Part shown: in pieces, positions 4,598 through 64,000 of the stretch
Layout: each line of letters starts with the position of its first letter
Position numbering within the stretch: position 1 is the stretch's first letter
Origin: Phycisphaerales bacterium
GTDB lineage: Bacteria > Planctomycetota > Phycisphaerae > Phycisphaerales > UBA1924
NCBI GenBank assembly: GCA_022072615.1
Contig: JAJVHS010000001.1
Span: 47,713-111,712, forward strand
Length of the DNA: 64,000 nt
Direction of reading: 5' to 3'
The notes under the pieces: generated by a model
The model's database searches: none
Told to the model about the DNA's origin: nothing
What the model saw: the letters and a program-made list of their open reading frames with translations, nothing else
Translations under genes and position numbers: made by a program

Positions 4598-4618
4598 CGC
4601 CGATGAGTCGAGGCCGCA

Positions 4619-23420: not shown

Positions 23421-23434
23421 GGAGGAATGTCGTC

Positions 23435-37451: not shown

Positions 37452-37596
37452 GCCCCGAGCGGTGCACGCCGCCAGAGTCCCGCCTCGCCGCTTGTCTGTA
37501 GTTTAGTCGGTCGCGATCTGCCATGATACCCAGAGTCCCCGCGTGGATAGGATTCTGTTCGCCCGTCCCCGGGTCGGAAAAGGAGGGTCGGATCGG

Positions 37597-42444: not shown

Positions 42445-43190
42445 CAACTATTTGGCGAGCCCGGCGCCTCGGCTTCGATCAGGTCTTCCGCGTCGTCGGA
42501 ATCCACCATCCGATAACCCACCCCTCGGACCGTCTTGATCCTGGCGGCGTGCGGCCCGAGCTTCTTGCGGATCGCCGTCACATGCACGTCGATCGTGCGC
42601 TCGGTCACGGTCACCCCCGGCCCCATCGCCCGCTGCATCAGGACGGCTCGGGAGAGAATCCGCCCGGACGCCTGGATGAGGGCGCACAGCAGGCGGAACT
42701 CCGTGAGCGTGAGCTTCACGGGCTGGCCGTCCACGGTGGCCTGGTGGGTGTCGGTGTTCAGGACGATGGTGCCCATCGAGAAAATCCGGGAGGGGACCTC
42801 CGGCTTGGCGGTCCGCCTCAGCACCGCTTCGATCCTGGCCAGCACCACCCGCATCGAGAACGGCTTGGAGATGTAGTCGTCCGCCCCCATCGTGAGGCCG
42901 ACGAGCTGGTCGGACTCGGTCCCCCGTGCCGTCAGCATGACGATCGGGATTCCCGCGGTGGCCGGGTCGGTCCTTACCCGCCGGGCGACCTCGATTCCGG
43001 AAACCTCCGGGATCATCAGGTCGAGCAGGATCAGATCCGGCGGCGTCCCGGCGATCGCCGCGAGCGCCTGGCGCCCGTTGAATGCCGCCAACGTCTGATA
43101 ACCCGCTTTTTGAAGGTTGATCGCGAGCAAATCCACCAAATCCCGCTCGTCATCGACAATCAGGATCGTCTTGTGTTCATTCACCTTCAT
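42444..43190 (-). CDS. OmpR/PhoB-family response regulator
   Basis: Receiver ILIVDDERDLVDLL...LILLDLMIPEVSG...ADDYISKPF and a winged-helix output domain (TLTEFRLLCAL...VHVTAIRKKL...TVRGVGYR). Start is ATG 43190 or GTG 43184. Confidence 0.9.
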   Translation of the reverse strand: MKVNEHKTILIVDDERDLVDLLAINLQKAGYQTLAAFNGRQALAAIAGTPPDLILLDLMIPEVSGIEVARRVRTDPATAGIPIVMLTARGTESDQLVGLTMGADDYISKPFSMRVVLARIEAVLRRTAKPEVPSRIFSMGTIVLNTDTHQATVDGQPVKLTLTEFRLLCALIQASGRILSRAVLMQRAMGPGVTVTERTIDVHVTAIRKKLGPHAARIKTVRGVGYRMVDSDDAEDLIEAEAPGSPNS

Positions 43191-43504
43191 CCTCCCGGTC
43201 TTGGCAGGGCTCGTCGAATCCGCCGCCCCGCCGCGACGCCGGAAGCGCACGTGGCCCGGAGTCGCCACAGGGTAGGGAAAACGGGCTTCGCCGCGGGATT
43301 CCGAAGTGCTTTGGTTGCGCTAATACCTGGGCTTTCTGTCCGCGGGGTCCGGTTGCCGGAGGCCGCTCAACCGCGAGTTGACTTGCCCGGTTTGCCTGTG
43401 AACATGGAGTCGTTTCACGGGGTATGAAGGCGTGTTTGGTGTTTACTCGCTACTGGAGGTTCATGGATCGGGGGTAGTCGAACCGAAAAACGTTATCGGC
43501 GTGT

Positions 43505-43533: not shown

Positions 43534-43846
43534 TTGCTTTCGTTCCCCGAACTGGTCGGTGAAGCGATCGAGAAAATCCGGCGACCTGGTGTGACAGGGG
43601 CCGGCGGGTTTTGTGGAGTCAGGTGATCCGAGCAAGCGGTCACGAGGGATCGGGTCAAGTCAGTGGAGCAGTTCTGTGACCGGGGCGTGTCGTCCCCGGA
43701 CCCCGCGGAGTGCGGGATGTAGAAATCTGAAAGAAACCGTCCGATGGGCAGGCCTCGTGGTCGGCCCCGAGCAGAGAGTCGGACGCAAGTCGAGCCCGGG
43801 CTCAGTGACCGTCAAGTCCGGGTCACATTCGAAGGAGTTTCGCGAG

Positions 43847-45112
43847 ATGAGTCGGAACAAGTTTCTTGTGATGCTCGCGGGTGCGGCTCTCGGCTTCGGC
43901 GCTACGGGCGCCCTTGCTCAGAGCGACTCGGAGCGGGCGTATTCGGCCGAGCTGAGCGCGGACGCGGTTGCCAAGACCCAGTCCTTCGCGAAGGCCAACG
44001 GCTTCACCATCACCGACGGGACCAACAAGCTGCGCGTCAGCGGCTTCACCCAGTTCCGGTACAACCTGAACTGGCGTGACGATCCGGGCAACGACGGCAA
44101 CGGCGACCACGACAGCGGCTTCGCCAACGGCTTCGAGCTGCCCCGCACGCGCATGATCCTGTCGGGCAACGTCCTCGATCCGAACCTCTCGTTCAAGGTC
44201 GAGGGTCAGTTCTCGGACGACAGCGACGGCTCGTTCGACCTGCTCGACGCCTTCGCCGCGTACAAGTACAACGACGAGTTCACGGTCGCCGGCGGCCAGT
44301 TCCAGGTTCCCCTCATGCGCGAGTGGTACCTGAGCCCCTTCGGCGTGCAGGGCGCTGACTACGGCATGGTCACCGACGTCTTCAACCCCGGCTACAGCCA
44401 GGGCATCTGGGGCGTCTACCAGAACGACGCGTTCAAGGGCATCTTCGCCTTTGACGACGGCGGCAACGCTGCCAACACCCGCTACAACAGCGTCAGCGAA
44501 GCCGACTACGGCCTGACCGCTCGCCTCGAGGGCAAGCTCTCGGGTGACTGGGCCCGCTTCAACGACATGTCCAGCTGGAAGAGCGACAACGGCGTGGCCA
44601 CCCTCATCGGCGGTGGTATCCACTACCAGAACAACGGCAACACGGCTCACCCGGGCAACGGTCCGGCCCCGCAGTTCCAGTACCTCCTCTACACCATCGA
44701 CGCCTCGATCGAGTTCGCCGGCGCCAACCTCTACGGCGCCTTCGTCGGCCAGCACATCGACCCCTCCGATGAGGCGGGTGGCGACAGCTACGACGACTTC
44801 GGCGTCCAGCTCGCCGGCGGGTTCTTCCTCGCCGAGCAGGACGAGCTCTTCGGCCGCTGGGACTGGATCATCGCCGACGATGACCGTCCGACCGAGGATG
44901 AGGACGTGAACGCCCTCACTGTCGGCTGGAACCACTATTTCGTTCCCGACAGCAACGCCGCGAAGTTCACCACCGAGCTCTGCTGGTTCATCAACGAGCC
45001 GGGCGCCAACAGCCTGGTCGCCTCGACCACCGGTTCGGCGGCCACGGGCCTGCTCCCCTCCTCCGAGGATGATCAGGTGCTGATCCGCTTCCAGTTCCAG
45101 CTCGCGTTCTAA
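43847..45112 (+). CDS. outer-membrane porin (phosphate-selective porin O/P-like, tentative)
   Basis: ATG 43847 is preceded by GAAGGAG. Signal peptide MSRNKFLVMLAGAALGFGATGALA, alternating beta-strand pattern, C-terminal ...IRFQFQLAF ending in Phe. Confidence 0.7.
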   Translation: MSRNKFLVMLAGAALGFGATGALAQSDSERAYSAELSADAVAKTQSFAKANGFTITDGTNKLRVSGFTQFRYNLNWRDDPGNDGNGDHDSGFANGFELPRTRMILSGNVLDPNLSFKVEGQFSDDSDGSFDLLDAFAAYKYNDEFTVAGGQFQVPLMREWYLSPFGVQGADYGMVTDVFNPGYSQGIWGVYQNDAFKGIFAFDDGGNAANTRYNSVSEADYGLTARLEGKLSGDWARFNDMSSWKSDNGVATLIGGGIHYQNNGNTAHPGNGPAPQFQYLLYTIDASIEFAGANLYGAFVGQHIDPSDEAGGDSYDDFGVQLAGGFFLAEQDELFGRWDWIIADDDRPTEDEDVNALTVGWNHYFVPDSNAAKFTTELCWFINEPGANSLVASTTGSAATGLLPSSEDDQVLIRFQFQLAF

Positions 45113-45251: not shown

Positions 45252-46505
45252 GTGCGCAACGCCATTTTTTCGGCCGTCGTCGCGTGCTCGATCTGCGGCC
45301 AGGCCATCGGCCAGACGACTTCATCCATCGACGTGCAGCGAGCCCAGCAGGCCGAACTCTCGGCCGACGCGGTCGCTCGCTCCATGAGCATGACCAAGGC
45401 CAACGGATTTACGATCTCTGACGGCGAGAACAAGCTCCGCGTGGGCGGTTGGGCGCAGTTCCGCTACCTCATGAACTGGCGCGACGATCCGGGCCCGGAT
45501 GCCAACGGCGATCACGACAGCGGCTTCACCAACGGCTTCGAGCTTGCCCGGACGAGGCTCAACGTCGCCGGAAACGTCCTGGACCCCAATCTCAAGTTCA
45601 AGGCTGAGGGCGATTTCAGCAGGAGCAACGGCGATTTCTCGCTGCTCGACGCCTTCGTCGGCTATACGTTCGGCGACAGCGGCTTCACCCTGCGCGGCGG
45701 GCAGTTCAAGCCGCCGCTCGAACGCGAGCAGCTCGTCTCCGACACGGCGCAGCTCGCCATCGAGCGCTCGACGGTGGACTCGGTGTTCAGCCAGAGCCGC
45801 AGCCAGGGCGTGGAGCTCCAGTACGCGGGCGACGCGGCGCGGGCGTTCGTCATGATGAACGACGGCCTGGGCGCGCTCAACACCCGCTACAACGATTCCA
45901 CGGAGGCGGACATCGGCGTCACCGCCCGCGGCGAGTGGAGGCTCGCGGGCGACTGGAAGCGGTTCGACGACTTCACCAGCTGGCGCGGGGCCGACACCGC
46001 CGCCATGCTCGGCGTCGCCGGACACTGGCAGCACGACGGCAACACCGCCACGCCTGGCGACGGGTCGCCCGGGCCGGTCCAGCAGACCGACCTGTTCCTC
46101 TACACGGCCGACCTCTCGGTCGAGGGCGACGGGTGGAATGTGTTCGCGGAGTTCGTCGGTCAGCACTTCGACGGCGACGAGGGCACCGACAGCCTCGATG
46201 ATTTCGGCGCGGTGGTGCAGGGCGGGTTCTTCATCTCCGAGCACGACGAGCTGTTTGCCCGGTGGGACTGCGTCTTCCCCGACAGCGACCGGGCGGGCAA
46301 CGACGACTTCAACACGATCACCGCGGGCTTCAATCACTACTTCGTGCCCGAGAGCCACGCGCTGAAGTTCACCGCCGACGTCTGCTGGTTCCTCGACCCG
46401 ACCACCGACAACTCGCTGGTCCCCACCGGCGGGCGCAACGGCCTGCTCCCGACCGCCGAGGACAACGAGGTCTGCGTCCGCTTCCAGCTCCAGTTCATGT
46501 TCTGA
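45252..46505 (+). CDS. outer-membrane porin, paralog of 43847-45112
   Basis: GTG 45252 follows GGAGAG, then a signal peptide. Collinear similarity to the upstream porin (AELSADAVA..KANGFTI.DG.NKLRV.G..QFRY..NWRDDPG.D.NGDHDSGF.NGFEL.RTR). Ends ...VRFQLQFMF. Confidence 0.7.
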   Translation: MRNAIFSAVVACSICGQAIGQTTSSIDVQRAQQAELSADAVARSMSMTKANGFTISDGENKLRVGGWAQFRYLMNWRDDPGPDANGDHDSGFTNGFELARTRLNVAGNVLDPNLKFKAEGDFSRSNGDFSLLDAFVGYTFGDSGFTLRGGQFKPPLEREQLVSDTAQLAIERSTVDSVFSQSRSQGVELQYAGDAARAFVMMNDGLGALNTRYNDSTEADIGVTARGEWRLAGDWKRFDDFTSWRGADTAAMLGVAGHWQHDGNTATPGDGSPGPVQQTDLFLYTADLSVEGDGWNVFAEFVGQHFDGDEGTDSLDDFGAVVQGGFFISEHDELFARWDCVFPDSDRAGNDDFNTITAGFNHYFVPESHALKFTADVCWFLDPTTDNSLVPTGGRNGLLPTAEDNEVCVRFQLQFMF

Positions 46506-46650: not shown

Positions 46651-49563
46651 TCAGCACCCCTGTTCGAACGCGTGCACGAAGGCGTCGAAGTCGTCCGTGT
46701 CCACGAAGCCCGACCGGTCGATGTCGGCGTCCAGCGTCCCGGCCTCGAACGCCGCGACGAAGAAGTCAAAGTCGTCGGTGTCGACGAAGCCGCTGGAGTC
46801 AAAGTCGGCGGTGCACGCCGGCTCGCATTCGTCGGGCAGGCCGTTCGAGTTCGAGTCGGCGCTCGTCCCCGAGGCCAGGTCGCACGAGTCGGGGACCTGG
46901 TTGCGGTTGCAGTCGGTGAACGACCCGGGCATGAAGTCAAAGCCCGTCGGCCGGTACAGGCCGGTGTCCGATCCGAGCACGTAGGCTCGCACCATGGCGC
47001 CGGTGTCGATGTCGAACTGATAGATCCGGGCGTCGGTGAGGTGCAGGTCGGTGGGCCAGCCGTAGGGATGGTCCTGGTCGTCGTGGGCGTGGTCGTCGTC
47101 ACCGTCGTCGTGGTCGTCGTCCCCGCCGCCGTGCCCGCGCGTGACGAGGTTTCTCGACGCGTAGACGTCGCCGTCGGGGCCAATGCGGAGGCACCAGGGT
47201 TCGTCCAGCGTGAGCCGAGTCGAGGTGCCGTTGATGTTCCACCGGCGCACGAACGCGCCCGTGTCGCCGCGGTACTCGTTGATGCGGTTGGTGCCGCGCG
47301 ACGCTACCAGCAGGTTGCCGTCGGGCTTGAACAGGATGCCGCGCGGATCCGCCAGCGATCCGCTCGCGGCCGCCACCAGTTCGCGCACGAACGCGCCGGT
47401 CTCGAGGCTGTACTCGAGCACGCGGTTGTCGCCGGTGGTCAGGCACAGGCGGTCGCCCGACACCGCGATACCGAAGGGCTGCGAAAGTCCTCCCGAACCG
47501 GGCGCGACGACGGTCCGCACCAGCGATCCGTCCACCAGCGAGAATTCCAGGACGCTGGCGAGCCCGCGGCTGACCACCAGCACCGTGTTCTGCTCGGGCC
47601 GCACCAGGAGCCCGGCGGGTGAATCCAGGCCCGCGGCGGCGGGGACCAGGTCCCGCACGATCGTTCCTTCCCGGTCCAGTTCGACGACGCGGTCCTGGAG
47701 CCCGCTCGACACCAGCACGCGGCGGCTTGGCGTGATGACAAGGTCCTGCCCGTCGGCGAGCTGGCCGGCGGCGGCGACATTCACCAGCACGCCGGTGCGA
47801 GAGAAGAACTCGCGGACGGACGCGTCGGAGGAGGTCGTCGCGCAGTACAGGTTCCAGGCGTGGTCGAGCTCGCGGTGGTCGGTTTGGCCGTTGGCGTCGC
47901 AGTCCTGGAACGCGTCGAGCACCACGTCGCGGTCCACGTCGAGGGTCATGTCGGTGTGGATCTGCCGGTAGTCCATCACGCCGTCGGCGTCGATGTCCGG
48001 CTCGCATTCGTCGGGGATCCGGTTGGCGTTGAAGTCGGAGCTGATCTGGAGCTGGATGTCGTGGCGGTCGGGGACGCCGTTGGAGTTGCAGTCGGCCTGG
48101 CACTCGTCGGGCAGGCCGTCGGCGTCGACGTCGCTGCTGAGGCCAGAGGCGATGTCGGCCGCGTCGAGCACGCCGTTGGCGTTGCAGTCCTCGCACTCGT
48201 CGGGAACACCGTTGGCGTTGACGTCCTGGCTCACGCCGAGCTGGATGTCCTGCGAGTCGGCCTCGCGGTTCTGGTTGCAGTCGGCCGCGAGGCACGTCCG
48301 CGTGGACATGTAGTTTCTCATCTGCTGGACGGTGTACTCGTGGAACCACAGGTCGTGGTTGGCGTCTCCGCCGCTGTAGGTCTGGCCGCAGTACGACATG
48401 ATCGTCCCGCGCTGCGGGTGCGAGAGTGCGTCGTCGCAGTTGTCGAGGTTGTAGTCGTGGGTGTGGTAGGTCCCGCAGTTGTGGCCGAGCTCGTGCGCCG
48501 TCACCATGATGTCCCGGGACGACCAGTGGGGCCGGTCAGGATCCGAGAAGTAACCCAGCGTATAGCCCGCCCACGAGTACGACGAGGAGTTGCACAGCGC
48601 CGGCGCGTACGCCACGCCGCCCGCCGAAAGCAGCCGGCTGCCGAGCAGGAGCTGCGCCGCGTCGCGGTTCACCGACTGCATCGTCGTGTTCCACAGCGTC
48701 CTGAACGAGTCGAGCGGATCGGTGCTGGTGTACGGATCATCGGTGTCGGGCCAGAGGCGCACGAACACCAGATCCACCCGCGTGTTGACGTCGCGGAGGA
48801 AGATGTCGCTCACCTGCCCGTAGAGCTGCACCACGTAGGTGTTCGCGTCCTCGATGTTGCCGAAAATCTGGAAGTACTCGCGGTCGGTATCCACCGCGAG
48901 CTGGAGCTGACGCAGCCCGCGCACCGGATCGTTCTCGCGGCCGCCCCCGCCCGGGGGCGCTTCGGGCGGCGGCGTCCAGCCCGGGGGCGGCGTCACGCCG
49001 CACAGCGGCACCTCGAGAGACACTCCGCCCTCGGAGGCGGCGAAGACCGCGTACTCACCGGGGTTCAGCGCGACGCCGGATCCTCCCGAGTGAGAAAGCA
49101 GGTAGCGTCCGCGGCCCGGTCCGAGGTCGATCCGCCCGACCGCGCTGCGGGGCGCCAGCGAGAGGAATACGTGCGACCCCGGTGCGCCCGCGACCGAACC
49201 GCGCAGCATGTGAATCTGCGATGCGTCGAACTCCACTTCGCGATTGGCCCCGGACGGCGTGGCCGCCACGAAACGCGTCGCCCGGGTGATGGGCGTGAAC
49301 TTCTCGAGCGTGAGCGTGACGCTCTCGCCGCCCGGCAGCGGGAAATCGGGCACCACGACCGGTCCGTCCCACGATTCGACCAGGCCGAGGGCGGAGGCGT
49401 CGAACGAAACGACCTGGACCCCGCCCGCGCTGCGCAGGGTGGTCGCCGCGATGTGAAGATCGAGGTCGTGGCTTGGCGGCAGTCCGCCGGGCTGGGCAAA
49501 GACAGTCACGGCGGTCCAGAAATACGCGAGAGAGGCCGCTTGGCGGCCGGCACGCTGTCGCAT
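46651..49563 (-). CDS. secreted multidomain protein: reprolysin-like zinc protease, TSP3-like Ca-binding repeats, NHL-type beta-propeller, Cys-terminal dockerin-like tail
   Basis: ATG 49563 followed by a signal peptide. VTAHELGHNCGTYHTHD fits HExxHxxGxxH. Repeated D.N.NG.PDECE units. About 6 NHL-like blades (e.g. DRVVELDREGTIVRDL, NRINEYRGDTGAFVRRW). Tail ends FVHAFEQGC. Confidence 0.8.
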   Translation of the reverse strand: MRQRAGRQAASLAYFWTAVTVFAQPGGLPPSHDLDLHIAATTLRSAGGVQVVSFDASALGLVESWDGPVVVPDFPLPGGESVTLTLEKFTPITRATRFVAATPSGANREVEFDASQIHMLRGSVAGAPGSHVFLSLAPRSAVGRIDLGPGRGRYLLSHSGGSGVALNPGEYAVFAASEGGVSLEVPLCGVTPPPGWTPPPEAPPGGGGRENDPVRGLRQLQLAVDTDREYFQIFGNIEDANTYVVQLYGQVSDIFLRDVNTRVDLVFVRLWPDTDDPYTSTDPLDSFRTLWNTTMQSVNRDAAQLLLGSRLLSAGGVAYAPALCNSSSYSWAGYTLGYFSDPDRPHWSSRDIMVTAHELGHNCGTYHTHDYNLDNCDDALSHPQRGTIMSYCGQTYSGGDANHDLWFHEYTVQQMRNYMSTRTCLAADCNQNREADSQDIQLGVSQDVNANGVPDECEDCNANGVLDAADIASGLSSDVDADGLPDECQADCNSNGVPDRHDIQLQISSDFNANRIPDECEPDIDADGVMDYRQIHTDMTLDVDRDVVLDAFQDCDANGQTDHRELDHAWNLYCATTSSDASVREFFSRTGVLVNVAAAGQLADGQDLVITPSRRVLVSSGLQDRVVELDREGTIVRDLVPAAAGLDSPAGLLVRPEQNTVLVVSRGLASVLEFSLVDGSLVRTVVAPGSGGLSQPFGIAVSGDRLCLTTGDNRVLEYSLETGAFVRELVAAASGSLADPRGILFKPDGNLLVASRGTNRINEYRGDTGAFVRRWNINGTSTRLTLDEPWCLRIGPDGDVYASRNLVTRGHGGGDDDHDDGDDDHAHDDQDHPYGWPTDLHLTDARIYQFDIDTGAMVRAYVLGSDTGLYRPTGFDFMPGSFTDCNRNQVPDSCDLASGTSADSNSNGLPDECEPACTADFDSSGFVDTDDFDFFVAAFEAGTLDADIDRSGFVDTDDFDAFVHAFEQGC
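46654..46815 (-). other. duplicated EF-hand/dockerin-like C-terminal module ending in Cys (tail A)
   Basis: CTADFDSSGFVDTDDFDFFVAAFEAGTLDADIDRSGFVDTDDFDAFVHAFEQGC then stop. Confidence 0.8.
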
Positions 49564-49766
49564 CGAGTTCCCTCACCTTCACCCCGCGGCGAAGCCGCGA
49601 GCATACCAGATGGTCCGGGAGAATCGGGACGCATCCGGCACAAACAGCGCGGGCCGAGCGGGATTTGTCTTTTCCGTTCCGGGGGTTCGTGCTAGATTCA
49701 TGCCGGGAACGCCCAAGCGGCGACCCGCAACCGCCGACGCAGCCAGACGTCTCCCGGAGATTGACC

Positions 49767-51917
49767 ATGGAACAGCATCGCCGGCCATCCGGCCGGCTTA
49801 TCGGAACGGCGTGTGTGCTTGCCGGGGCCGCCGGCCTGGCGGTCGCCGGTTCGACGGCCGAGAACGCGGTCGTGATCATCGACCCGGCCTACGCCGACGG
49901 CCTGTACATCGCCAATCACTACATCAACCAGCGGAACATTCCGGAATCCAACATCCTTTACATGGATTCCGCGGCCGCGGCCAACTACCAGCAGTGGACG
50001 ACCGTCCAGCAGCAGGCGTTCCGCGCGTTCCTCGACCAGCGCGGCATCTCCGACCACGCCGACATCGTGATCGTCGCCCCGACCGACGCCTTCTGGGTGT
50101 CCGAGGGCGGGCTGGTCTCCGATACGTGCTTCGACATCACACGCTTCAGCCTCGGCACGCTCTACACGATGACCTTCATCTCCGACGAGATTCTCGCCGG
50201 GCCCACGACGCAGGCCAAGGGCAACCGCTTCGCCTCGTCGACCGAGGCCGCCGTCGGCTTCGACAGCGACATCGCCTACCTCAACGGCGTGGCGAGCACC
50301 AACATCAACGCCAGGCGCTACTACATCGGCACCGGTCTTGCCTGGACCGGCGAACGCGGCAACCTCGTCTCGCAGGTCGTCAGCTCGCTCAACTCGAGCA
50401 TCGCGGCCGACGGGACCCGGCCGTCGGGCACGTTCTATTTCATGAACAACACCGCCGACTCGGCGCGCAACATCCGGGCCAGCGGCTACTCGGCCGCCAG
50501 GAACTCCATCATCTCGCGCGGCGGCCTCGCCGAGATCATCGTCGGCGATCTGCCGTACGGGAAGACCGATTGCCTGGGCATCATGACCGGCGTCGCCGGC
50601 TTCAGCCTCTTCGGCACCAACACCATCATCAAGGGCGGCGCGTACTGCGACCACCTGACCTCGTACGCGGCCGCGTACGACGTCGCCGGGCAGACCAAGA
50701 CCACCGAGTGGATCACCTGGAACGCGGGCGGGTCGTCGGGCGCGATCGAGGAGCCCTGCAACTACCCCGGCAAGTTCCCGCGGCCGATGATGCACGCGCA
50801 CTACTTCCAAGGCCTGTCGATGGCCGAGGCGTGGTTCCGGGCCATCCAGTACATCCCCTTCCAGCTCCACTTCGTGGGCGACCCCCTCGCGCGGCCCTTC
50901 GCGCACATCCCGCAGGTCTCGGTGCTCGACGCGCCGACCGGCACGGTGTCGGGCACCCTGACCCTCACGCCCGCGGCGACCACGACCCAGCCCGGCGCGT
51001 CGATCGCCGGCTACGAGCTGCTCGTGGACGGCGTCGCGGTTGATTTCTCGACCCCCGCCGATCCCGCGCTCTGGGTGAACACGGCCGGTCTTGCCGACGG
51101 CGTGCATGACGTGCGCGTGCTGGCGTACGACAGCACGGCGGTGAAGTCGTACGGGCGCTGGATCGGGTCGGTGACGGTGGACAATTTCGGCCGGTCGACC
51201 TCGCTGAGCGTCGTGCTCGCGTCGGGCAACCTCGCCTCCAGGTTCGATTTCAACGTCGCGGGCAACGGCCACGGCGTGAAGGAGATCCGGCTGCTGCACA
51301 ACGGACGCGTGGTGGGCGCGACGAGCAACTCGTCGGGCACGATCGGCGTCCATGGCCAGATCCTCGGCGCCGGCACCAGCACGCTCCGAGCGGAAACCGA
51401 GTACCTCGACGGCCGCGTGTCGCGCAGCGCGCCCGTCCAGGTGACGGTCGCGTCGTCGGGGACGCCGGCCAATGTCGCGCCCGTCGCCTACGGCTACCGC
51501 AAGATGCTGCTCACCAAGGAAGCGCATGTCGTCGAGCTGCCCGCGACCTACGACAGCGCGCTCACGGGGCCCGGGTACACCTACACGGTGCTCTCGGGGC
51601 CGACCATGTCGACCCTCGTCGGCACCTACGGCGGCGCGTACCGCATCTACAAGCCCAACCCCGATGCCGAAGGCCAGGAGGACATCACCTTCCGCGTGAC
51701 AACCCCGGGCGGGGCATCCAACATCGCGACCATCACGCTGGTCTACTCGCGCTGCCCGACCGACATCGACGGGTCGGGCTTCGTGGACGGCGACGACTTC
51801 GACGCGTTCGTCCTGCTGTTCGAGGCCGGCGACCCCGCGGCCGACTTTGACGGGACGGGCTTCGTCGACACCGACGACTACGACGCGTTCGTGACGGCGT
51901 TCGAGGCCGGGTGCTGA
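49767..51917 (+). CDS. secreted protein: N-terminal domain of unknown function (possibly TIGR03790-like), probable Ig-like beta-sandwich region, Cys-terminal dockerin-like tail
   Basis: ATG 49767 follows GGAG, then a signal peptide. The N-terminal VVIIDPAYADGLYIANHYINQRNIPESNILYM ... HFVGDPLARPF resembles, from memory, the TIGR03790 family. The assignment of the middle region is tentative, read from composition only with no motif identified. Tail ends FVTAFEAGC. Confidence 0.7.
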   Translation: MEQHRRPSGRLIGTACVLAGAAGLAVAGSTAENAVVIIDPAYADGLYIANHYINQRNIPESNILYMDSAAAANYQQWTTVQQQAFRAFLDQRGISDHADIVIVAPTDAFWVSEGGLVSDTCFDITRFSLGTLYTMTFISDEILAGPTTQAKGNRFASSTEAAVGFDSDIAYLNGVASTNINARRYYIGTGLAWTGERGNLVSQVVSSLNSSIAADGTRPSGTFYFMNNTADSARNIRASGYSAARNSIISRGGLAEIIVGDLPYGKTDCLGIMTGVAGFSLFGTNTIIKGGAYCDHLTSYAAAYDVAGQTKTTEWITWNAGGSSGAIEEPCNYPGKFPRPMMHAHYFQGLSMAEAWFRAIQYIPFQLHFVGDPLARPFAHIPQVSVLDAPTGTVSGTLTLTPAATTTQPGASIAGYELLVDGVAVDFSTPADPALWVNTAGLADGVHDVRVLAYDSTAVKSYGRWIGSVTVDNFGRSTSLSVVLASGNLASRFDFNVAGNGHGVKEIRLLHNGRVVGATSNSSGTIGVHGQILGAGTSTLRAETEYLDGRVSRSAPVQVTVASSGTPANVAPVAYGYRKMLLTKEAHVVELPATYDSALTGPGYTYTVLSGPTMSTLVGTYGGAYRIYKPNPDAEGQEDITFRVTTPGGASNIATITLVYSRCPTDIDGSGFVDGDDFDAFVLLFEAGDPAADFDGTGFVDTDDYDAFVTAFEAGC
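51753..51914 (+). other. duplicated EF-hand/dockerin-like C-terminal module ending in Cys (tail B)
   Basis: CPTDIDGSGFVDGDDFDAFVLLFEAGDPAADFDGTGFVDTDDYDAFVTAFEAGC then stop. Confidence 0.8.
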
Positions 51918-52007
51918 CGAAGCACGGCGTCGCACGCGCGGCAGTCCGGGCTTTGGCCCCGCGCCGCGGCGCAGCGAACATCGTTCCCGCACGGGCCCCG
52001 GCGTCGA

Positions 52008-52050
52008 AAGAAAAGCGGCTCCGCCTGTGCGGAGCCGCGCCTGTTGTTTC
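52008..52050. terminator. bidirectional terminator between convergent genes
   Basis: gcggctccgc-ctgt-gcggagccgc 10-bp stem flanked by aaagaaaa and ctgttgttt. A second small hairpin cacccc-gtgc-aggggtg follows. Confidence 0.6.
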
Positions 52051-52081
52051 ACCCCGTGCAGGGGTGATTCGCCGCTGAACT

Positions 52082-55000
52082 TCAGCAGCCGGCCTCGAAA
52101 GCGAGCACGAAGGCGGTGAAATCGTCGGTGTCGACGAAGCCCGTGCCGTCGAAGTCCGCGGCGTCGATGCCCAGCTCAAAGTCGATGACGAACGCGGTGA
52201 AATCATCCGTGTCGACGAAACCGGAGTGGTCGTAGTCCGACGGCGCCAGCACCGTGATCATGGCCGGGTCGGTGGGGAAGGCCCCGCACGAGTCACGGAC
52301 GAGGCAGTAGAACAGTCCGCCGTCGGCGCAATCGATGGGGCTGAACGTGAGCTGTTCGGTCTGGGCGCCGTGGATGCGGTCGTTGTCGACCACGGGCTCG
52401 TTCTCGCGGTACCACTGGTAGCTCAGGGTGCCGTTGCCGGCGGCGTCGACCACCAGCGAGACATCGTCGCCTCCCTCGTACGTGGTCGACTCGGGCTGCA
52501 GCGAGATGAGAATGGTCGACGACCCGAAGTGAACGCTTCCCGGCGACCCGGCTTTGTACCCGCTCCCGCCATCCGCGACCAGGTGGCTGGTGAGCATCTG
52601 GACGTCGCAGCAGTAGAGCGCCAAGCGGCCTCCGCCGCCGCCACCGCCGCTGGAGCCTCCCGCGCCGCCGCCGGCGGAGATCATGCCGGTCCCCGCGAGC
52701 GTTCCGCACTCGATCCACAGGCTGCCGCCGGCGCCTCCGCCGCAGCGCGGTTGGCCCGCCGATCCGTCGGCGGTGATCGAACCGGCGACGGAGAGCGTGC
52801 CGTCAACGCGCAGCCGCAGCGATCCACCGCCTCGACCGCCGACGCTCCCGTAGTAGATGGAATTGCCACCGCCGCTGCCCCACTCGATCGGGATCGGCGC
52901 CGAACCGTACGACGGTCCTCCCTGGGTATTCTGGGCACCGTCGCCGCCGGCTCCTCCGTGTCCGCCGCCGCCGCCGTAGTAGAGGGACTGACCGCCCGCG
53001 CCCGGGCCTTGGGCAGCCGCGAATCCCAGCCCGCTCACGCTCACCACACCGGCGGTCTGCACGGTCATGTTTCCGCCGGCGTAGATCTCCCCGTCGTTGA
53101 GCCAGAGTTCCGCGCCGCTGTCGATCAGGATGCTGCCGGCCAGGCCCAGCGTGGTTGCCTGCGCCGGGGTCTTGTTGCCGAATTTCGCCGCTCGCCGGAC
53201 GATCAGGTCCGCGTCGAACCAGACGGGACCCGAGATCGAGGTCATCGCGCCCTCGACCATGTTGTTGTCGATGAAGAGGCTGGCAAGACCCGATCCGGGC
53301 TGGAGCCAGATGGAGCCGGCGCCGCCGTACATGTGCCCGCTGCCGCCGAATGCGGTGAGCTGGCCGGTGAAATTCGACGTGCCGTATTCGACCGCGACGC
53401 GGCCGCCACCGCCGCCGCCGGCGCTGGCGTGTCCCGCGCCACCGTTGGCGGTGATGGTGCCCGAACCGGCGAAGGTGTCGCAGGTGATCCAGATGCTCCC
53501 GCCCGACCCGCCGCCGGCGCCGGTGCCGCCGTTGGTGCCGTTGGCGGAGATCGTGCCGCCCAGGTTCAGCGCCCCGCCGATCTGCAGCCGTGTCGAACCG
53601 CCCCCGGCGCCCCCCGACGACCCGTAGTACGAGGAGAATCCGCCCCCGGATCCGAGCTCAGTGGGTTCGGTAAACGACCCGTAGGCGACACCGCCGCTCG
53701 GCCCCTGCCCGGAGTTTCCGCCGTCACCGCCGAAACCGCCGCCGCCCGCGGAGTACAACCCGAGTGAGCCGGCCCCCGTTCCCGAGCCGCTGCCATAGCC
53801 AAGGCCCGACACCGTCAGCAGGGTTCCCGGCTGCAGCGTCAGGCCCCCGCCGGTCTGCAGCATGCCGTCATTGAGCCAGAACGTGCTTCCCGACTCCACC
53901 CAGACATCGCCGCTGAGGGTGAGCACGGTGCCCTGTCCCGCGGTCTTGTTGCCGAAGCTTGATGCGCCCTGCACCCAAAGGTCCGCGTCGAGCGACATCT
54001 GCCCCGTGATGGGGGTCATGGCGCCCGCCAACCCGCTGTTGTTGACGATCCATGTCGCCCGGCCGTTCTCGGGCTGCAGCCAGATCGTCCCCGCGCCGCC
54101 GGACGCGTGCCCGGTTCTGCCCAGTGCCTGGATCTGGCCGGCGAAGGCGTTGGTCGCGTACTCGACCGCGATCCTGCCGCCGCCTCCGCCGCTGCCACCG
54201 GAATTGCCCGCGCCGCCGTTGGCGGTGATGGATCCCGATCCGGCGAGCGTGTCGCACGTGATCCACAGGCTGCCGCCGGAGCCTCCGCCGGTGTTCGAGC
54301 CACCGCTCACGCCGTCGGCGAGGATCGATCCGTCGACCGTGAGCGTGCCGCCGATGCTGACGCGCATCGCCCCGCCGCCGGCGCCTCCGGTCGACCCGTA
54401 ATAGGACGAATTACCGCCACCCGAACCCAGGTGCACCGGGTTCACGAGAGATCCGTACGCGGGGCCGCACCCCGTGTTGTCCACCGCGGCGCCTCCCTCG
54501 CCGCCGTACCCCGCGCCCGCCCCGCAGTAGAGCGTCGACGCGCCGGCGCCGGGCCCCTGTCCGCCCGTGTATCCAAGGCCCGTGACGCTGAGCGATGCGT
54601 CGGAAGTGATCGTCGCGTCGCCGCTCGCGGCGAGTGTCCCGTCGTTGAGCCAGAGAATGCCCGCCGAATCAACCGTGATGTTCCCGTCCAGGGACAGGCT
54701 TGTTTCCTGCCCGGCGGACTTGTTCCCGAAGTTCGCGGCGCCCTTGATCGCGAGGTTCGCGTCGAGCGTCACCTGCCCGTCGATCGGCGTCATCGCGCCG
54801 GAATGCCCGGCGTTGTCGACGGTGAGCGTCGGGCGGCCGCCGCCGTACGTGACCCAGGAAGTCCCGGCGCCGCCGTACTGCGCGCCCGCGGCTCCCTTGG
54901 CTTGGATCTGTCCCGCGAAGTCGGACGTCCCGGCGACCACGGCGATCCTGCCGCCGGCGCCTCCGCCGCCGCTTGCGTGGCCCGCACCCCCGTTGGCGGT

Positions 55001-55738
55001 GATCACCCCGGATCCGGTGAACGACCCGCACGTGATCCACAGTCCGCCGCCCGATCCACCGCCGCTCCCCGTGCCGCCGGTCACGCCATCGACGATCACC
55101 GAGCCGTCGACCGTGAGCGAGCCGGCCACGGTCAGGTGCAGCACGCCCCCGCCCGATCCGCCCGGACCGCCGTAGTAGATCGTGCTGCCGCCGCCCGAAC
55201 CGAAGCTCGCGGGAACCTGCAACGAGTCGTATGAGTCGCCGCCCGTCACGCCCGACTGGCCGGTCCCCCCGGCGCCTCCATGCCCGGCGCCCGCGGCGTT
55301 GTACATGCCGATCGTGCCGGCTCCTGGGCCTTGGCCCGAGGTGTACCCGCGGCCAGCGAGATCGATCCTGCTGCCGATCTGGACGGTCACGTGTTCGAGC
55401 GCCGAGAGATCGGCCCCGAAGATCACATCCGTGCCCGCGCCACCGGAGTAGTCGTAGGAGAACGTGGTCGAGTGCGTGACGACGCCCGCCTGCTCGGAAG
55501 CGTTCTTCTGCACCAGCAGTGACTTGATCGTGTGTCTTCCGTTGACCGTCAGGGTGGTTCCCTGCACCACGACGTCGGCGTTGACCAGCGCCACCGGAGG
55601 GCCTCCGGCGGTGGGAACGATCGTGGTATCCAGCGGTCCGATGGTCGCTGGCGAGGTGATGAGCACGATCTCCGCCTGCGCCCAGACACTGACAACGCTG
55701 ACGACCGACATGAGGGCCGTTGCACGGTGATACTTCAT
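52082..55738 (-). CDS. 1218-aa secreted glycine-rich repeat protein (4 x 258-aa modules), Ig-like domain, Cys-terminal dockerin-like tail
   Basis: ATG 55738 lies 6 nt after GGGAGA. Signal peptide MKYHRATALMSVVSVVSVWAQA. Four modules start at GRGY/GLGY/GLGY/GLGF. The Ig-like segment contains GTLSYQWYRE...GLFYCLV. Tail ends FVLAFEAGC. Confidence 0.8.
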   Translation of the reverse strand: MKYHRATALMSVVSVVSVWAQAEIVLITSPATIGPLDTTIVPTAGGPPVALVNADVVVQGTTLTVNGRHTIKSLLVQKNASEQAGVVTHSTTFSYDYSGGAGTDVIFGADLSALEHVTVQIGSRIDLAGRGYTSGQGPGAGTIGMYNAAGAGHGGAGGTGQSGVTGGDSYDSLQVPASFGSGGGSTIYYGGPGGSGGGVLHLTVAGSLTVDGSVIVDGVTGGTGSGGGSGGGLWITCGSFTGSGVITANGGAGHASGGGGAGGRIAVVAGTSDFAGQIQAKGAAGAQYGGAGTSWVTYGGGRPTLTVDNAGHSGAMTPIDGQVTLDANLAIKGAANFGNKSAGQETSLSLDGNITVDSAGILWLNDGTLAASGDATITSDASLSVTGLGYTGGQGPGAGASTLYCGAGAGYGGEGGAAVDNTGCGPAYGSLVNPVHLGSGGGNSSYYGSTGGAGGGAMRVSIGGTLTVDGSILADGVSGGSNTGGGSGGSLWITCDTLAGSGSITANGGAGNSGGSGGGGGRIAVEYATNAFAGQIQALGRTGHASGGAGTIWLQPENGRATWIVNNSGLAGAMTPITGQMSLDADLWVQGASSFGNKTAGQGTVLTLSGDVWVESGSTFWLNDGMLQTGGGLTLQPGTLLTVSGLGYGSGSGTGAGSLGLYSAGGGGFGGDGGNSGQGPSGGVAYGSFTEPTELGSGGGFSSYYGSSGGAGGGSTRLQIGGALNLGGTISANGTNGGTGAGGGSGGSIWITCDTFAGSGTITANGGAGHASAGGGGGGRVAVEYGTSNFTGQLTAFGGSGHMYGGAGSIWLQPGSGLASLFIDNNMVEGAMTSISGPVWFDADLIVRRAAKFGNKTPAQATTLGLAGSILIDSGAELWLNDGEIYAGGNMTVQTAGVVSVSGLGFAAAQGPGAGGQSLYYGGGGGHGGAGGDGAQNTQGGPSYGSAPIPIEWGSGGGNSIYYGSVGGRGGGSLRLRVDGTLSVAGSITADGSAGQPRCGGGAGGSLWIECGTLAGTGMISAGGGAGGSSGGGGGGGRLALYCCDVQMLTSHLVADGGSGYKAGSPGSVHFGSSTILISLQPESTTYEGGDDVSLVVDAAGNGTLSYQWYRENEPVVDNDRIHGAQTEQLTFSPIDCADGGLFYCLVRDSCGAFPTDPAMITVLAPSDYDHSGFVDTDDFTAFVIDFELGIDAADFDGTGFVDTDDFTAFVLAFEAGC
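52085..52243 (-). other. duplicated EF-hand/dockerin-like C-terminal module ending in Cys (tail C)
   Basis: PSDYDHSGFVDTDDFTAFVIDFELGIDAADFDGTGFVDTDDFTAFVLAFEAGC then stop. Confidence 0.8.
52516..55354 (-). repeat. four tandem intragenic repeats, period 774 bp (258 codons)
   Basis: The G(R/L)G(Y/F) module-start motif begins at residues 129, 387, 645 and 903, i.e. exactly 258 residues apart each time. Modules 2 and 3 align without gaps; modules 1 and 4 share the same motif series at the same offsets. Confidence 0.85.
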
Positions 55739-55993
55739 GGTACTTCTCCCGCCTCGCAAGAAGGTTTTCAACGAAGAACGTCGCTATGAACTAATACGGA
55801 CACAAACATCCGTTGATCCCGGCACTGGTCCGGTTTTGATGGATCACGCCGCCAAGGCGTCGGTTCGGGATGGATTGGCGCACGTCCCGACCCTGCCGAA
55901 CGCGAAGCGAAAAAATGGTCCGAATCGAGCTATCTTCGCCGACTCTGGATGAATTGCCGACGGGGAACACCGATCGAGCGCATCCGGTCCGGC

Positions 55994-57370
55994 ATGAATG
56001 CCCAAGACAGCCGCTCGCATACCCGTTCACGGCGGATGAGGATGTTCCTCGCATTGTCGCTCGCGATCATCGCGGGCTCGAGCGTCCCCGCTCTCGCGCA
56101 GGAGCACGGGCCCCCGCCGGTCGTTCAGCGCAGTGCATCTCCCGGCCCGGATATCGCCGCCATCCAAGGCCGCATGAAGTCGGCCGTTGAAGAAGACGGG
56201 TTCTCGGGGGCCCTGCTCGTGGTTTCGCAGGGACGGGTGATCGTTCGCGACGGCTACGGGCTCGCGAATCGTGAAGAGAAGATCGCCAACACGCCCGCCA
56301 CGATCTTCGGGATCGGCTCGACGCCGATCGACTTCACCAAGGCGGCGATCCTTCTGCTCGAGCAGGAAGGCAAGCTCCATCTCTCCGACACGATCGGTAC
56401 CTACCTCCAGGGAGTTCCCAAGGACAAGCAGGCCATCACACTCGAACACCTGATGACAGGCGCCTCGGGCCTCAAGAACTTTCACGGTTCGCCACAGGAT
56501 CCAAACCCCGATCACACGTGGATCGACCGCGCCGAAGCAGTGCGCCGCATCCTGTCGAGCGAGCTTCTCTTCGAACCCGGCACCGGCAACGAGCACTCCC
56601 ACTCGGCATTCGGTCTCCTCGCCGCGATCGTCGAGCTCGTGAGCGGCCAGAGCTACGAGGCCTTTCTCAAGGCTCGTTTCTTCGATCCCCTCGGCATGCA
56701 CGACACCGGCTTCTTCGGCGAGCCGATCGACGCTGCTCGACTCGCCGTCGGGTACGGCCGCAAGAGCGGCACCGGGATCAACGCCCCGCCGTACTGGGGC
56801 AAGACCTCGTGGCTGGTCATGGGCAGCGGGGGCATGACCTCCACGCTCGACGACCTCCGGACGTTCATCGACGCGATCCGCGGAGGCAAGATCCTTCCGC
56901 GAGAGGCCACCCGAAAGTACATGTACCGTCCGGGCGACGTGCTCGCCGGTGGAGACATGCACGGATACGAGATCCTCATCGGGCTGAGCCGCGATCCCGG
57001 TTCGCTCATCCTCCTCGTCAACAACTGCTACGACGGCCGCGGCCCGAACCCGTCCTTCGAGCAGCTCTTCCAGGACCTGCTGCGGCTCTCCGCTCCTTCG
57101 GAGGGACCGCCGCCCTTCACGATCGGGGTGCGCTTCGATCTCCAGCAGGCCGGCGTGGTCCGCATTGAAGGTGTCGTCGAAGGGATGCCCGGCCAGGCAG
57201 CGGGCCTCAAGGCGGGCGACGTCATCCGCTCGATCAACGGCAAGTTCGACGAGAACGACCCGCTCGGCATCCTGAGCAGCCTCCTCCGGCACGATGAGCC
57301 CATTGTCTTCGAAATCGAGAGGGGCGGCGCAAGACAGAAGATCTCCGTCACCCCGCGCAAGCGTCCCTAG
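55994..57370 (+). CDS. beta-lactamase-fold serine hydrolase family protein with C-terminal PDZ domain
   Basis: Signal peptide RMRMFLALSLAIIAGSSVPALA. Class C/DD-peptidase-like core (GYGLANRE...PATIFGIGS...LLLEQEGKLHLSDTIGTYL...FEPGTG). PDZ-like GVVEGMPGQAAGLKAGDVIRSINGK. Start is ATG 55994, 56036 or 55949. Confidence 0.72.
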   Translation: MNAQDSRSHTRSRRMRMFLALSLAIIAGSSVPALAQEHGPPPVVQRSASPGPDIAAIQGRMKSAVEEDGFSGALLVVSQGRVIVRDGYGLANREEKIANTPATIFGIGSTPIDFTKAAILLLEQEGKLHLSDTIGTYLQGVPKDKQAITLEHLMTGASGLKNFHGSPQDPNPDHTWIDRAEAVRRILSSELLFEPGTGNEHSHSAFGLLAAIVELVSGQSYEAFLKARFFDPLGMHDTGFFGEPIDAARLAVGYGRKSGTGINAPPYWGKTSWLVMGSGGMTSTLDDLRTFIDAIRGGKILPREATRKYMYRPGDVLAGGDMHGYEILIGLSRDPGSLILLVNNCYDGRGPNPSFEQLFQDLLRLSAPSEGPPPFTIGVRFDLQQAGVVRIEGVVEGMPGQAAGLKAGDVIRSINGKFDENDPLGILSSLLRHDEPIVFEIERGGARQKISVTPRKRP

Positions 57371-62468: not shown

Positions 62469-63146
62469 ATGAAATTGGCAATGGCAGTTGCAGCACTGGC
62501 GCTTGCTGCGGGCACCGCCAGCGCGCAGTACGTGCTCCGCGGCGAGATGAACGGCTGGGGCGGCGGCGGGGACATCCCGTTTGTTGACATGGGCGGCGGC
62601 AAGTTCACCGCCGTGGCCACCGGCCTCACCCCCGGCGCCATGTACGAGTTCAAGGCCACCACCCCCGACTGGTCGTTCAACGGTCCGGGCTCCAACGCGA
62701 AGGCGATGGCCAACGCCTCGGGCGTGCTGACCGTCAACTGGTTCCCCAGTTCGTCGTGGTCCGACGGCTGGATGCCCGATGCCCGCGTCCGCGTCGGCTA
62801 CGAGGATTCCGGCCTGCACGGCTGGGACCTCATGGGCAGCGTCAACGGCTGGTCTTCGCCCTTCGGCACGCTCGCCGGCGTCGGCGGCGGCGTCTACGCG
62901 ACGACCATCAGCGTCGCCCCCGGCAGCTACGAGTTCAAGTTCCGCAAGGAAGGCGACTGGGCGATCAGCATCGGCGGCGACTTCGGCAATTCGGCTGACA
63001 ACGCCACGTTCTCGGCCGGCGCCCTGCCGCTGAAGTTCGAGCTCGATCTTCCCAACGGCCGCTGGCGCGTGACGGAAGTTCCGGCCCCCGGCGCCCTGGC
63101 GCTCACGGGCCTCGCCGGCCTGGCCGCGCTGCGCCGCCGCCGCTGA
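62469..63146 (+). CDS. secreted tandem carbohydrate-binding-module-like protein with PEP-CTERM-like tail
   Basis: Signal peptide MKLAMAVAALALAAGTASA. Two about 90-aa repeats with an (E/S)(M/V)NGW(G/S) motif (LRGEMNGWGG / LMGSVNGWSS) and (Y)EFK(A/F), as in starch/glycogen-binding beta-sandwich modules. Tail VPAPGALALTGLAGLAALRRRR. Confidence 0.7.
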   Translation: MKLAMAVAALALAAGTASAQYVLRGEMNGWGGGGDIPFVDMGGGKFTAVATGLTPGAMYEFKATTPDWSFNGPGSNAKAMANASGVLTVNWFPSSSWSDGWMPDARVRVGYEDSGLHGWDLMGSVNGWSSPFGTLAGVGGGVYATTISVAPGSYEFKFRKEGDWAISIGGDFGNSADNATFSAGALPLKFELDLPNGRWRVTEVPAPGALALTGLAGLAALRRRR

Positions 63147-63314: not shown

Positions 63315-64000
63315 TCAGCACGCGTGCTCGAACGCCGTGACGAAGGCCGTGAAGTCGTCCGTGTCGACGAACCCGGTGCCGTCGAAGTCGGCGGCCGGGT
63401 CGCCGGCCTCGAAGGCGGCGACGAAGGAGCCATGATCCTCGAGGTCCACAAAGCCCGAGCAGTCAAAGTCGGCCGGGCAGAGGAACTTGAGGCTCACGCT
63501 GCACTCGATGCGGCCGGACTTGATGTCAGGGCCCGGGGTGGTGAAGGTGGACACATCGAGGCCCGAATCGACGGTGTAGACGCCGGGCTGGAGAACGCCG
63601 GTCACGCGCGTGCTCGCCACGCCGGGGAGCGCCCGGGCGAGCGAGGCCACGGCCCCCTCCGCGCCCGCGAGCGTGACGCTGGAGGTGACCGTCGTGCCCG
63701 CGCCGTTGACGGTGATCTTGAGCGAGGCATCGAAGCTGAAACGCGTGGGCGCATCGACCCGGAACTGCGAGCGCAGCTGGCCGGTGGCGGTCCCCATCGC
63801 GATGCCCGGCGACGGGCACGCGACCGTTTCCTCGGTGACGAAGCTGGCGGTGTAGCCCGTGGGGGTCAGCGAGGAAATCTGCGACGAGTGGGTGGTCGCC
63901 TTCTGCTTTCCGAGCTGGAGGTAGCGGTCGAGCACCCGGTTGAAGTTGGTCAGCGTCTCGGAATGCGCATTGTCCGAGTCGAACGCCGAGGAGTACGACA
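63315..64000 (-). CDS. protein with Cys-terminal dockerin-like tail (N-terminal part outside window)
   Basis: The minus frame stays open to base 64000 (..SYSSAFDSDNAHSETLTNFNRVLDRY..). C-terminus CPADFDCSGFVDLEDHGSFVAAFEAGDPAADFDGTGFVDTDDFTAFVTAFEHAC. Confidence 0.7.
   Translation of the reverse strand, partial: SYSSAFDSDNAHSETLTNFNRVLDRYLQLGKQKATTHSSQISSLTPTGYTASFVTEETVACPSPGIAMGTATGQLRSQFRVDAPTRFSFDASLKITVNGAGTTVTSSVTLAGAEGAVASLARALPGVASTRVTGVLQPGVYTVDSGLDVSTFTTPGPDIKSGRIECSVSLKFLCPADFDCSGFVDLEDHGSFVAAFEAGDPAADFDGTGFVDTDDFTAFVTAFEHAC
63318..63479 (-). other. duplicated EF-hand/dockerin-like C-terminal module ending in Cys (tail D)
   Basis: See the CDS entry. The second half-repeat is nearly identical to those of tails B and C. 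Confidence 0.8.

Follow-up and report, generated by a model that had tools for sequence, protein, structure and literature searches.

Why do three adjacent genes that encode otherwise unrelated, secreted-looking proteins all end in the same short tail? The question is raised by a 64,000-nucleotide stretch of contig JAJVHS010000001.1, from a Phycisphaerales metagenome-assembled genome (MAG); this whole stretch, which has a G+C content of about 68%, is referred to here as the window, and positions are counted within it. The three genes are the open reading frames (ORFs) of protein 1 (46651..49563, minus strand, 970 aa), protein 2 (49767..51917, plus strand, 716 aa) and protein 3 (52082..55738, minus strand, 1218 aa), which are identical to GenBank entries MCG3121718, MCG3121719 and MCG3121720, respectively, each annotated as a hypothetical protein on a 127.8 kb contig. 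A preliminary description of the locus had reported a gapless common tail of 52-54 residues, and pairwise BLAST bears this out: proteins 1-3 align solely over their last 52-54 residues, without gaps and at 67-75% identity (E 1e-16 to 1e-20). The tails lie at 46654..46815 (minus strand; aa 917-970 of protein 1, stop codon 46651-46653), 51753..51914 (plus strand; aa 663-716 of protein 2, stop codon 51915-51917) and 52085..52246 (minus strand; aa 1165-1218 of protein 3, stop codon 52082-52084). A six-frame motif search of the window found four tails and no more. The fourth (63318..63479, minus strand) belongs to protein 4 (63315..64000, minus strand), recognized by its tail motif and by the family model NF041540; its gene runs off the right edge of the window and its N-terminus lies past that edge.

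The tail is built from two similar halves. In protein 1 its layout is C-T-A, loop 1, helix 1, a linker, loop 2, helix 2 and G-C, directly followed by the stop codon. Each loop has the 12-residue consensus D-x-D-x-S/T-G-F-V-D-x-D-D and is followed by an amphipathic F-x-A-F-V-x-A-F-E helix; the halves share 17-18 of 23 residues in proteins 1-3 and 13 of 23 in protein 4. Exactly 12 residues separate loop 2 from the stop codon in all four window tails, three of which end in G-C and one in A-C. Proteins 1, 2 and 4, but not protein 3, have an additional cysteine upstream of loop 1, so that two of the first three tails carry it, as had been noticed earlier. Judged by profile matches, the tail is the GC-type dockerin of NCBIfam, NF041540 (dockerin_GC), a catalogued and experimentally unstudied family; our literature search found no use of the term "GC-type dockerin". 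Proteins 1, 2, 3 and 4 score 31.8, 37.6, 27.6 and 36.4 bits against this model, whose curated cutoff is 29 bits. The label given in the preliminary description is thus correct for proteins 1, 2 and 4; protein 3 falls just below the cutoff and matches profile positions 15-67 only, because it lacks the N-terminal segment with the cysteine. The shared tails might have come from recent gene conversion or from a mobile 3' cassette, and both ideas were rejected, since similarity at the DNA level does not extend past the stop codon and the tails differ at synonymous sites.

The earlier assignment of the tail to the EF-hand superfamily, and within it to the dockerin kind, is upheld by motif, structural model and profile comparison. 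Across 142 tails, the predicted Ca2+-ligand positions D1, D3, S/T5, D9 and D12 of both loops show 98-100% conservation, with Asp at position 12 in 100% of them; Asp at this position, together with the lack of an entering helix, is the signature of the dockerin F-hand. An AlphaFold model of the tail of protein 2 (62-aa construct; pLDDT 88.8, pTM 0.74) contains two long helices only, at residues 21-32 and 48-59, one after each loop, and no entering helix. In Foldseek comparisons the model superposes on dockerins 5lxv_B, 2y3n_B, 2vn5_B, 2ozn_B, 6kg9 and 2mte with TM scores of 0.47-0.62 and rmsd of 2.2-3.6 A, the best being 5lxv_B (0.62), 2y3n_B (0.56) and 2vn5_B (0.56), whereas EF-hand proteins reach TM scores of only 0.23-0.32 at 8-11 A. 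When GC-type tails were aligned by hhalign with canonical-looking tails from Phycisphaerae, most of which match Pfam Dockerin_1 (13 of 17; see below), the probability was 96.2% (E 2e-9); the alignment spans the complete module and pairs both cysteines. Finally, when a profile of the protein-2 orthologue family was searched against the PDB, dockerins ranked first, ahead of EF-hand proteins: 2y3n_B (E 7e-6), 5lxv_B (6e-5), 6kg9, 6kgc and 6kge (about 2e-4), and 1daq, 2vn6 and 2mte (about 2e-3).

These comparisons bear on the possibility that the tail is an ordinary EF-hand pair, merely a Ca2+-dependent stabilizer or sensor that docks to nothing. Such a module would account for the Pfam EF-hand_1 matches of the window tails, which at 18.9-25.1 bits remain under the threshold of 25.4, and for the finding that the top PDB sequence matches of the tail profile itself are EF-hand proteins (2jnx, E 8e-6). 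We nevertheless regard it as very improbable, the least probable of the explanations considered here. The tail has no entering helices and carries Asp, not Glu, at position 12; its model can be superposed on dockerins but not on EF-hand proteins; it is exchanged with Dockerin_1-positive tails on orthologous cargo (see below); and a stabilizer needs neither a strictly terminal place nor near-invariance on unrelated cargo. Motif, fold model, cargo swaps and PDB profile agree that the tail is a dockerin and not a canonical EF-hand. The dockerin homology and the fold identity of the GC-type tail are new here.

The cargo swaps were found among homologues of the passenger of protein 2, a TIGR03790 family whose members are 42-76% identical and widespread in Phycisphaerae. 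At one and the same position these homologues carry GC-type tails, tails of the form "DWN...NSQDFFDF...GC", canonical-looking tails with the motif "C-x-G-D-L-N-G-D-G...D-L-x-x-L-L...F-G-x-x-C-x", tails of a "DINPFV" type and, in some cases, non-dockerin endings. Pfam Dockerin_1 is matched by 13 of the 17 canonical-looking tails. The nearest orthologues of protein 2 (69-76% identical) end in GCGD or GCG, and the sister dockerin subtypes on the same cargo end in C-P, C-S, C-D or C-G. The GC type belongs, as one subtype among several, to a radiation of dockerins bracketed by cysteines in Phycisphaerae, and that a single conserved cargo bears many interchangeable subtypes of this kind across the class has, like the homology above, emerged from this analysis.

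We searched for further copies of the tail with a profile built from the four window tails, run against cluster representatives of 1.84 billion proteins. With a cutoff of E ≤ 1e-3 it detected 3917 representatives, of which 609 remained at E ≤ 1e-10. Among the best 150 representatives the module is C-terminal in 142, and of these 141 end in Cys and 138 in GC. A separate scan of one genome per species yielded 336 confirmed stretches; the analyses of related loci reported here refer to the best 80 of these 336, all of which lie in MAGs of Phycisphaerales or Phycisphaeraceae. In 76 related loci and the window together, 155 of 155 significant tails lie within 5 residues of a stop codon, 147 end in Cys and 146 in GC. 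The first impression that the tail always ends in Cys therefore holds for all four window tails and for most others, and fails for the closest orthologues of protein 2 with their GCGD and GCG endings. A signal-peptide-like N-terminus was recognized in 87% of 112 full-length representatives, and a heuristic search for a basic n-region followed by a hydrophobic h-region likewise supports the signal peptides first proposed for proteins 1-3. The description of the module as essentially always C-terminal on secreted-looking proteins has thus proved accurate. Cargo identified in 83 diverse representatives includes Ig domains, Rax2, DUF5122, FG-GAP, Kelch and LVIVD propellers, laminin-G and beta-helix domains, and C25 and M12B peptidases. 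Across 142 paralogues most positions of the tail are nearly invariant.

Copies of the tail are numerous within single genomes. At least 56 were counted in the sampled 518 kb of MAG JBGAHA01 and at least 43 in a second MAG, and two or more copies occur within 20 kb at 48 of the 77 loci. The copies of JBGAHA01 are scattered over many contigs. Moreover, the pair of proteins 1 and 2 is the only part of the window's tail cluster that is syntenic elsewhere, protein 3 being absent from related genomes. Since the family is scattered across the genome, the window is not the dedicated surface-display locus that the clustering of three members within it had suggested. JBGAHA01 also contains tail-only ORFs of 68-83 aa just downstream of long ORFs (10001-10252 in locus L077 and 10001-10207 in locus L079); these are probably frameshifted or mis-assembled genes and not real mini-proteins. 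A different arrangement is seen in three metagenomic proteins (P0001, P0002 and P0005), which are dockerin-only secreted proteins of 194-295 aa with a GC-type module immediately behind the signal peptide and then three or four more Cys-rich EF-hand-like repeats. The N-terminal place of the module in these small proteins implies that it can fold when not terminal.

The spacing of the two cysteines that bracket the module is as constant as that of the loops. All 145 parsed tails have a loop-to-loop spacing of 27 residues; 139 continue for exactly 12 residues beyond loop 2, 141 have a Cys at position -3 from loop 1, and 139 have the terminal Cys. Among 138 representatives of this geometry, 14 have no upstream Cys; 8 of the 14 form the lineage of protein 3, in which an Ig domain is followed by "LAPSDYD", and 8 of 8 members of this lineage have a substitute Cys at -17. 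In 74 two-loop homologues of protein 2 the bracket cysteines covary: 57 have the two together, 14 have neither and 3 have only one. The 14 without them are of the DINPFV type, in which another, internal pair of cysteines occurs. Slutzki et al. (2013) reported an intramolecular clasp, joining the three residues before loop 1 to the C-terminus, in all intact dockerins that they examined, and found that it stabilizes the Ca2+-bound dockerin fold and cohesin binding (PMC3821032). As the bracket cysteines occupy these clasp positions, a disulfide clasp is the best reading of them, and a stapling disulfide between Cys(-3) and the terminal Cys is accordingly predicted from the alignments. The covariation evidence for this clasp is likewise new. 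Of the two roles first offered for the cysteines, the stapling disulfide is thus favored, by covariation and by position, and attachment through a terminal thiol or carboxylate is not: the orthologue endings GCG and GCGD and the sister endings C-P, C-S, C-D and C-G, in which the Cys is not terminal, argue against any chemistry that needs such a group.

The same observations must be set against the idea that the tail is a C-terminal sorting or secretion signal, comparable to the C-terminal domain (CTD) of the type IX secretion system (T9SS) or to PEP-CTERM, which a dedicated machine would recognize and which would then be removed, or attached covalently through the terminal Cys. Strict C-terminal placement, with the stop codon right after the Cys in most copies, and the large number of copies on diverse Sec-dependent cargo are what such a signal would produce. 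Its stop codons could be read in the same way, as TGA directly follows the terminal Cys in 134 of 144 tail genes (93%) compared with 60% of confident non-tail genes at the same loci. The simplest explanation of this bias would be that the stop codon was inherited with the module and that stop codons turn over slowly. Selenocysteine read-through of the TGC-TGA ending was also considered and rejected: no conserved read-through frame, length or sequence was found downstream of the tail stops, which makes selenocysteine unlikely.

A further point in favor of a sorting signal comes from a Laminin_B-like passenger (about 190 aa, Pfam) that bears either a GC-type tail or a PEP-CTERM-like tail. The GC-type form occurs in JBGAHA01 (4091-4822, minus strand, of locus L079) and at two other loci, and a homologue 34% identical to it, in a closed 4.63 Mb MAG, has a PEP-CTERM-like tail (11668-12321, minus strand, of locus L080). 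This is the only clear swap that we found between the two classes of tag. The Laminin_B-like gene had been considered as a partner of the tails when it was met as a neighbor, and was dropped when it turned out to be cargo. PEP-CTERM-like signals also occur in the window itself, where a (V/I)PAPG motif, a hydrophobic helix and RRRR-stop end four secreted proteins (4905-5546, minus; 16827-17684, plus; 23432-25264, plus; 62469-63143, plus). Their resemblance to PEP-CTERM/MYXO-CTERM is marginal, one scoring 18.3 bits against the TIGR03382 cutoff of 15.85 and the others falling just below their cutoffs; twelve further tails of this kind were found in related loci. The presence of this signal on four window genes indicates that two C-terminal tagging systems stand side by side in the genome.

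On balance we consider a sorting or secretion signal unlikely, though less so than a simple EF-hand pair. A free terminal Cys is not required, as the orthologue and sister endings demonstrate, and the terminal Cys covaries with the upstream Cys as expected of an internal disulfide. The tail is a folded acidic module that has neither a transmembrane helix nor a basic cluster and is not a beta-sandwich CTD, the genome has a separate PEP-CTERM-like signal, no recurrent enzyme family was found beside the tail genes of 80 loci, and in some small secreted proteins the module is N-terminal.

We propose instead that the tail is a GC-type dockerin, closed by a disulfide clasp, that tethers exoproteins non-covalently and in a Ca2+-dependent manner to a common extracytoplasmic receptor, and we put the probability of this reading at roughly 60%. 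The tail would be a Phycisphaerales-specific subtype of the type-I-like dockerin module, in which each half provides a predicted Ca2+-binding loop and an amphipathic helix and the two halves pack into the two-helix dockerin fold. Covalent closure of the N-to-C intramolecular clasp would come from the disulfide that joins Cys(-3) to the terminal Cys. The module stands at the very C-terminus of a wide range of unrelated Sec-exported proteins, among them peptidases, beta-propellers, Ig proteins and lectin-like modules, and would bring them to one receptor outside the cytoplasm, a cohesin or cohesin analogue presumably encoded elsewhere in the genome. The near-invariance of the tail across 142 paralogues fits a single common receptor, and a single receptor type for GC-type tails is plausible on this comparison of sequences.

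Several results weigh against this proposal. Pfam Dockerin_1 (PF00404) is not matched by any of the four window tails at E ≤ 10; the tail profile, as described above, retrieves EF-hand proteins first from the PDB; and every Foldseek E-value of the 62-residue tail model exceeds 1, because the domain is short. A free terminal Cys should make odd Cys counts more frequent in mature proteins, and the counts of tail-bearing proteins, 48 even and 51 odd, are uninformative in this respect. Nor did we find the expected receptor. A Pfam scan of about 48 ORFs, essentially all genes of the window, detected no cohesin, precomputed Pfam annotation shows none in five other annotated neighborhoods, and a profile seeded from the clostridial cohesins of CipA and validated against 1AOH, when run over 1.6 Mb of related loci, gave no significant match (best E 0.6). 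This is a weak negative, since the profile is narrow and the search covered parts of genomes. The Pfam scan of the window also agrees with the preliminary description in showing no partner and no sorting enzyme: housekeeping genes and assorted exoproteins were identified, and no sortase or exosortase. When 1499 ORFs from 80 loci were clustered, no tail-less family recurred beside tail genes beyond what orthologous synteny accounts for.

The missing cohesin is an argument for a third alternative, in which the module has the dockerin fold and no cohesin partner. As an acidic, Ca2+-loaded module it might bind lipopolysaccharide (LPS), capsular or cell-wall polysaccharide, maybe through bridging Ca2+, or it might cause exoproteins to self-associate. 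The tail is indeed very acidic and nearly invariant across paralogues, and dockerin-like modules without recognizable cohesins occur in many bacteria. On the other hand, every characterized dockerin, to our knowledge, binds a protein partner, and our cohesin search covered only about 7% of the related genomes with its narrow profile. Cohesin-dockerin systems have moreover been reported in the class Phycisphaerae (PMC6461901, PMC11557425). We therefore hold this alternative to be the strongest competitor of receptor docking and still well short of probable.

Docking to a receptor might also be only part of a wider arrangement. It is conceivable, though doubtful at present, that Phycisphaerae run a large, non-cellulosomal, disulfide-locked dockerin display on the diderm surface, with orthogonal subtypes swapped on the same cargo. 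The GC type, the DWN/SQDFF-GC type, the canonical-like type and the DINPFV type may then be lineage subtypes, and the GC type may dock 50 or more exoproteins to a receptor that is not recognizable as a cohesin. In the boldest version, the C-terminal Cys may exchange into an intermolecular disulfide with the receptor, making the docking covalent.

The passengers of the window tails illustrate the diversity of the cargo. Protein 1 consists of a signal peptide, an M12B reprolysin-like metallopeptidase domain (aa 218-395; Pfam Reprolysin_5, E 1.1e-18), Cys-rich repeats, a beta-propeller-like region and the GC-type dockerin tail. The reprolysin domain had been predicted at the outset, together with an NHL propeller that was not confirmed, as Pfam and NCBIfam gave weak ScyE-like and phytase-like matches only. 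Five Cys-rich D-x-N-x-N-G-x-P-D-x-C motifs were noted in the protein, at aa 440-560 and 884-916 (window positions 47890-48250 and 46816-46920), two of which directly precede the dockerin tail. They resemble thrombospondin type 3 repeats and probably bind Ca2+.

In protein 2 the signal peptide is followed by an alpha/beta domain of the TIGR03790 family (55 bits), three beta-sandwich (Big_9/Ig-like) domains and the tail; the Ig-like region anticipated in the preliminary description is thus the Pfam family Big_9. The full-length protein was modeled by AlphaFold with a pLDDT of 92.2 and a pTM of 0.90. In the passenger (49767-51740), His296 and an E-P-C331-N motif are invariant across 73 homologues, which suggests that the alpha/beta domain is a putative Cys/His hydrolase. 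Neither Foldseek, whose results were swamped by generic Ig-like matches, nor a PDB profile search gave a PDB relative of the domain. The visible passenger of protein 4 is akin to the beta-sandwich region of protein 2 (36% identity over 188 aa by BLAST). Protein 3 carries, between its signal peptide and its tail, four tandem Gly-rich repeats of about 258 aa each (aa 120-1100, 29% Gly), in agreement with the glycine-rich region first described, and an Ig domain (Pfam Ig_3, aa 1078-1147).

Upstream of protein 1 the window encodes a PhoR/PnpS-like histidine kinase (40909-42447, minus strand) and a PhoB-like response regulator (42447-43268, minus strand), both identified by Pfam and with best NCBIfam matches below cutoff, and two porins of the OprO/P family (43613-45112 and 45252-46505, plus strand; Pfam). 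Three other Phycisphaerales MAGs (loci L008, L032 and L033) have proteins 1 and 2, the porins, the PhoBR-like system and the dcw genes in a syntenic arrangement, at 66-76% identity. We regard the PhoBR-like and porin genes as context rather than as established parts of a docking system. A PhoH gene lies at 36336-37502, and proteins 1 and 2 might be part of a phosphate-starvation response. Related MAGs lack protein 3 and the adjoining beta-lactamase-fold/PDZ gene (55949-57370) at their otherwise syntenic loci; there, RsmH comes immediately next to the orthologue of protein 2, so that the genomes differ by an insertion or deletion over 52082-57370. PDZ domains bind C-terminal peptides; nothing else ties this gene to the tails.

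If docking is true, a single 54-residue tag would organize a large share of the Phycisphaerales exoproteome, at least 56 proteins per genome that include peptidases, propellers and adhesin-like proteins, in bacteria that are common in wastewater and aquatic systems. The cohesin-dockerin principle would then reach diderm, non-cellulolytic bacteria, far beyond cellulosomes. What orphan dockerins outside Firmicutes bind becomes a testable question, as the tail is small, conserved and easy to synthesize, and the protein-2 family, in which the cargo is constant and the tag variable, provides natural controls. A compact, disulfide-locked and nearly invariant dockerin could also serve as an orthogonal part in designer scaffolds.

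Among known systems, the nearest is the NF041540 family, which represents the very same module: in proteins 1, 2 and 4 the model spans the entire tail, and it is C-terminal, has the G-C ending and differs from the tail in nothing structural. It is a curated annotation model only. The PEP-CTERM/MYXO-CTERM signals resemble the GC-type tail in that both mark the C-terminus of numerous secreted proteins, unrelated to each other, within a single genome. Those signals, however, comprise a short motif, a transmembrane helix and an Arg cluster and undergo exosortase-type processing, whereas the GC-type tail is a soluble, acidic, folded domain, predicted to bind Ca2+, that has no hydrophobic span or Arg cluster. 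Similarly, the T9SS CTD is a beta-sandwich of about 80-100 residues, compared with 54 residues and two alpha-helices, as modeled, in the GC-type tail.

With the cellulosomal type I dockerin (PF00404; 1OHZ_B, 2VN5_B, 5LXV_B) the GC type shares the duplicated loop-helix unit, Asp at loop position 12, the two-helix fold, near two-fold internal symmetry, a place at the C-terminus of secreted proteins and, by prediction, the N-to-C clasp, and the two are homologous through intermediates in Phycisphaerae (hhalign 96%). The GC type differs in having no direct Dockerin_1 match, a linker shorter by about 4 residues, Ser or Thr at loop position 5, and nearly invariant G-F-V-D and F-x-A-F-V-x-A-F-E motifs. 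Its clasp would be a disulfide, whereas that of the type I dockerin is an aromatic or electrostatic contact. It also differs from the cellulosome in its setting, with a diderm host that is not cellulolytic, a cargo made up mostly of proteins other than glycoside hydrolases, and at least 56 copies per genome. Closest in setting is the "planctosome" hypothesis for the Phycisphaerae family Nemodlikiaceae, in which exoenzymes that include M12B peptidases are docked on a surface scaffold (Andrei et al. 2019, PMC6461901). That model, itself a hypothesis, rests on canonical dockerins and cohesins identified with dbCAN and InterProScan, at 0-6 per MAG (PMC6461901). The GC type is far more numerous and escapes the dbCAN and InterProScan models, and no cohesin scaffold was found for it here. 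The two share the class and the idea of docking, and protein 1 of the window is itself an M12B peptidase with a dockerin tail.

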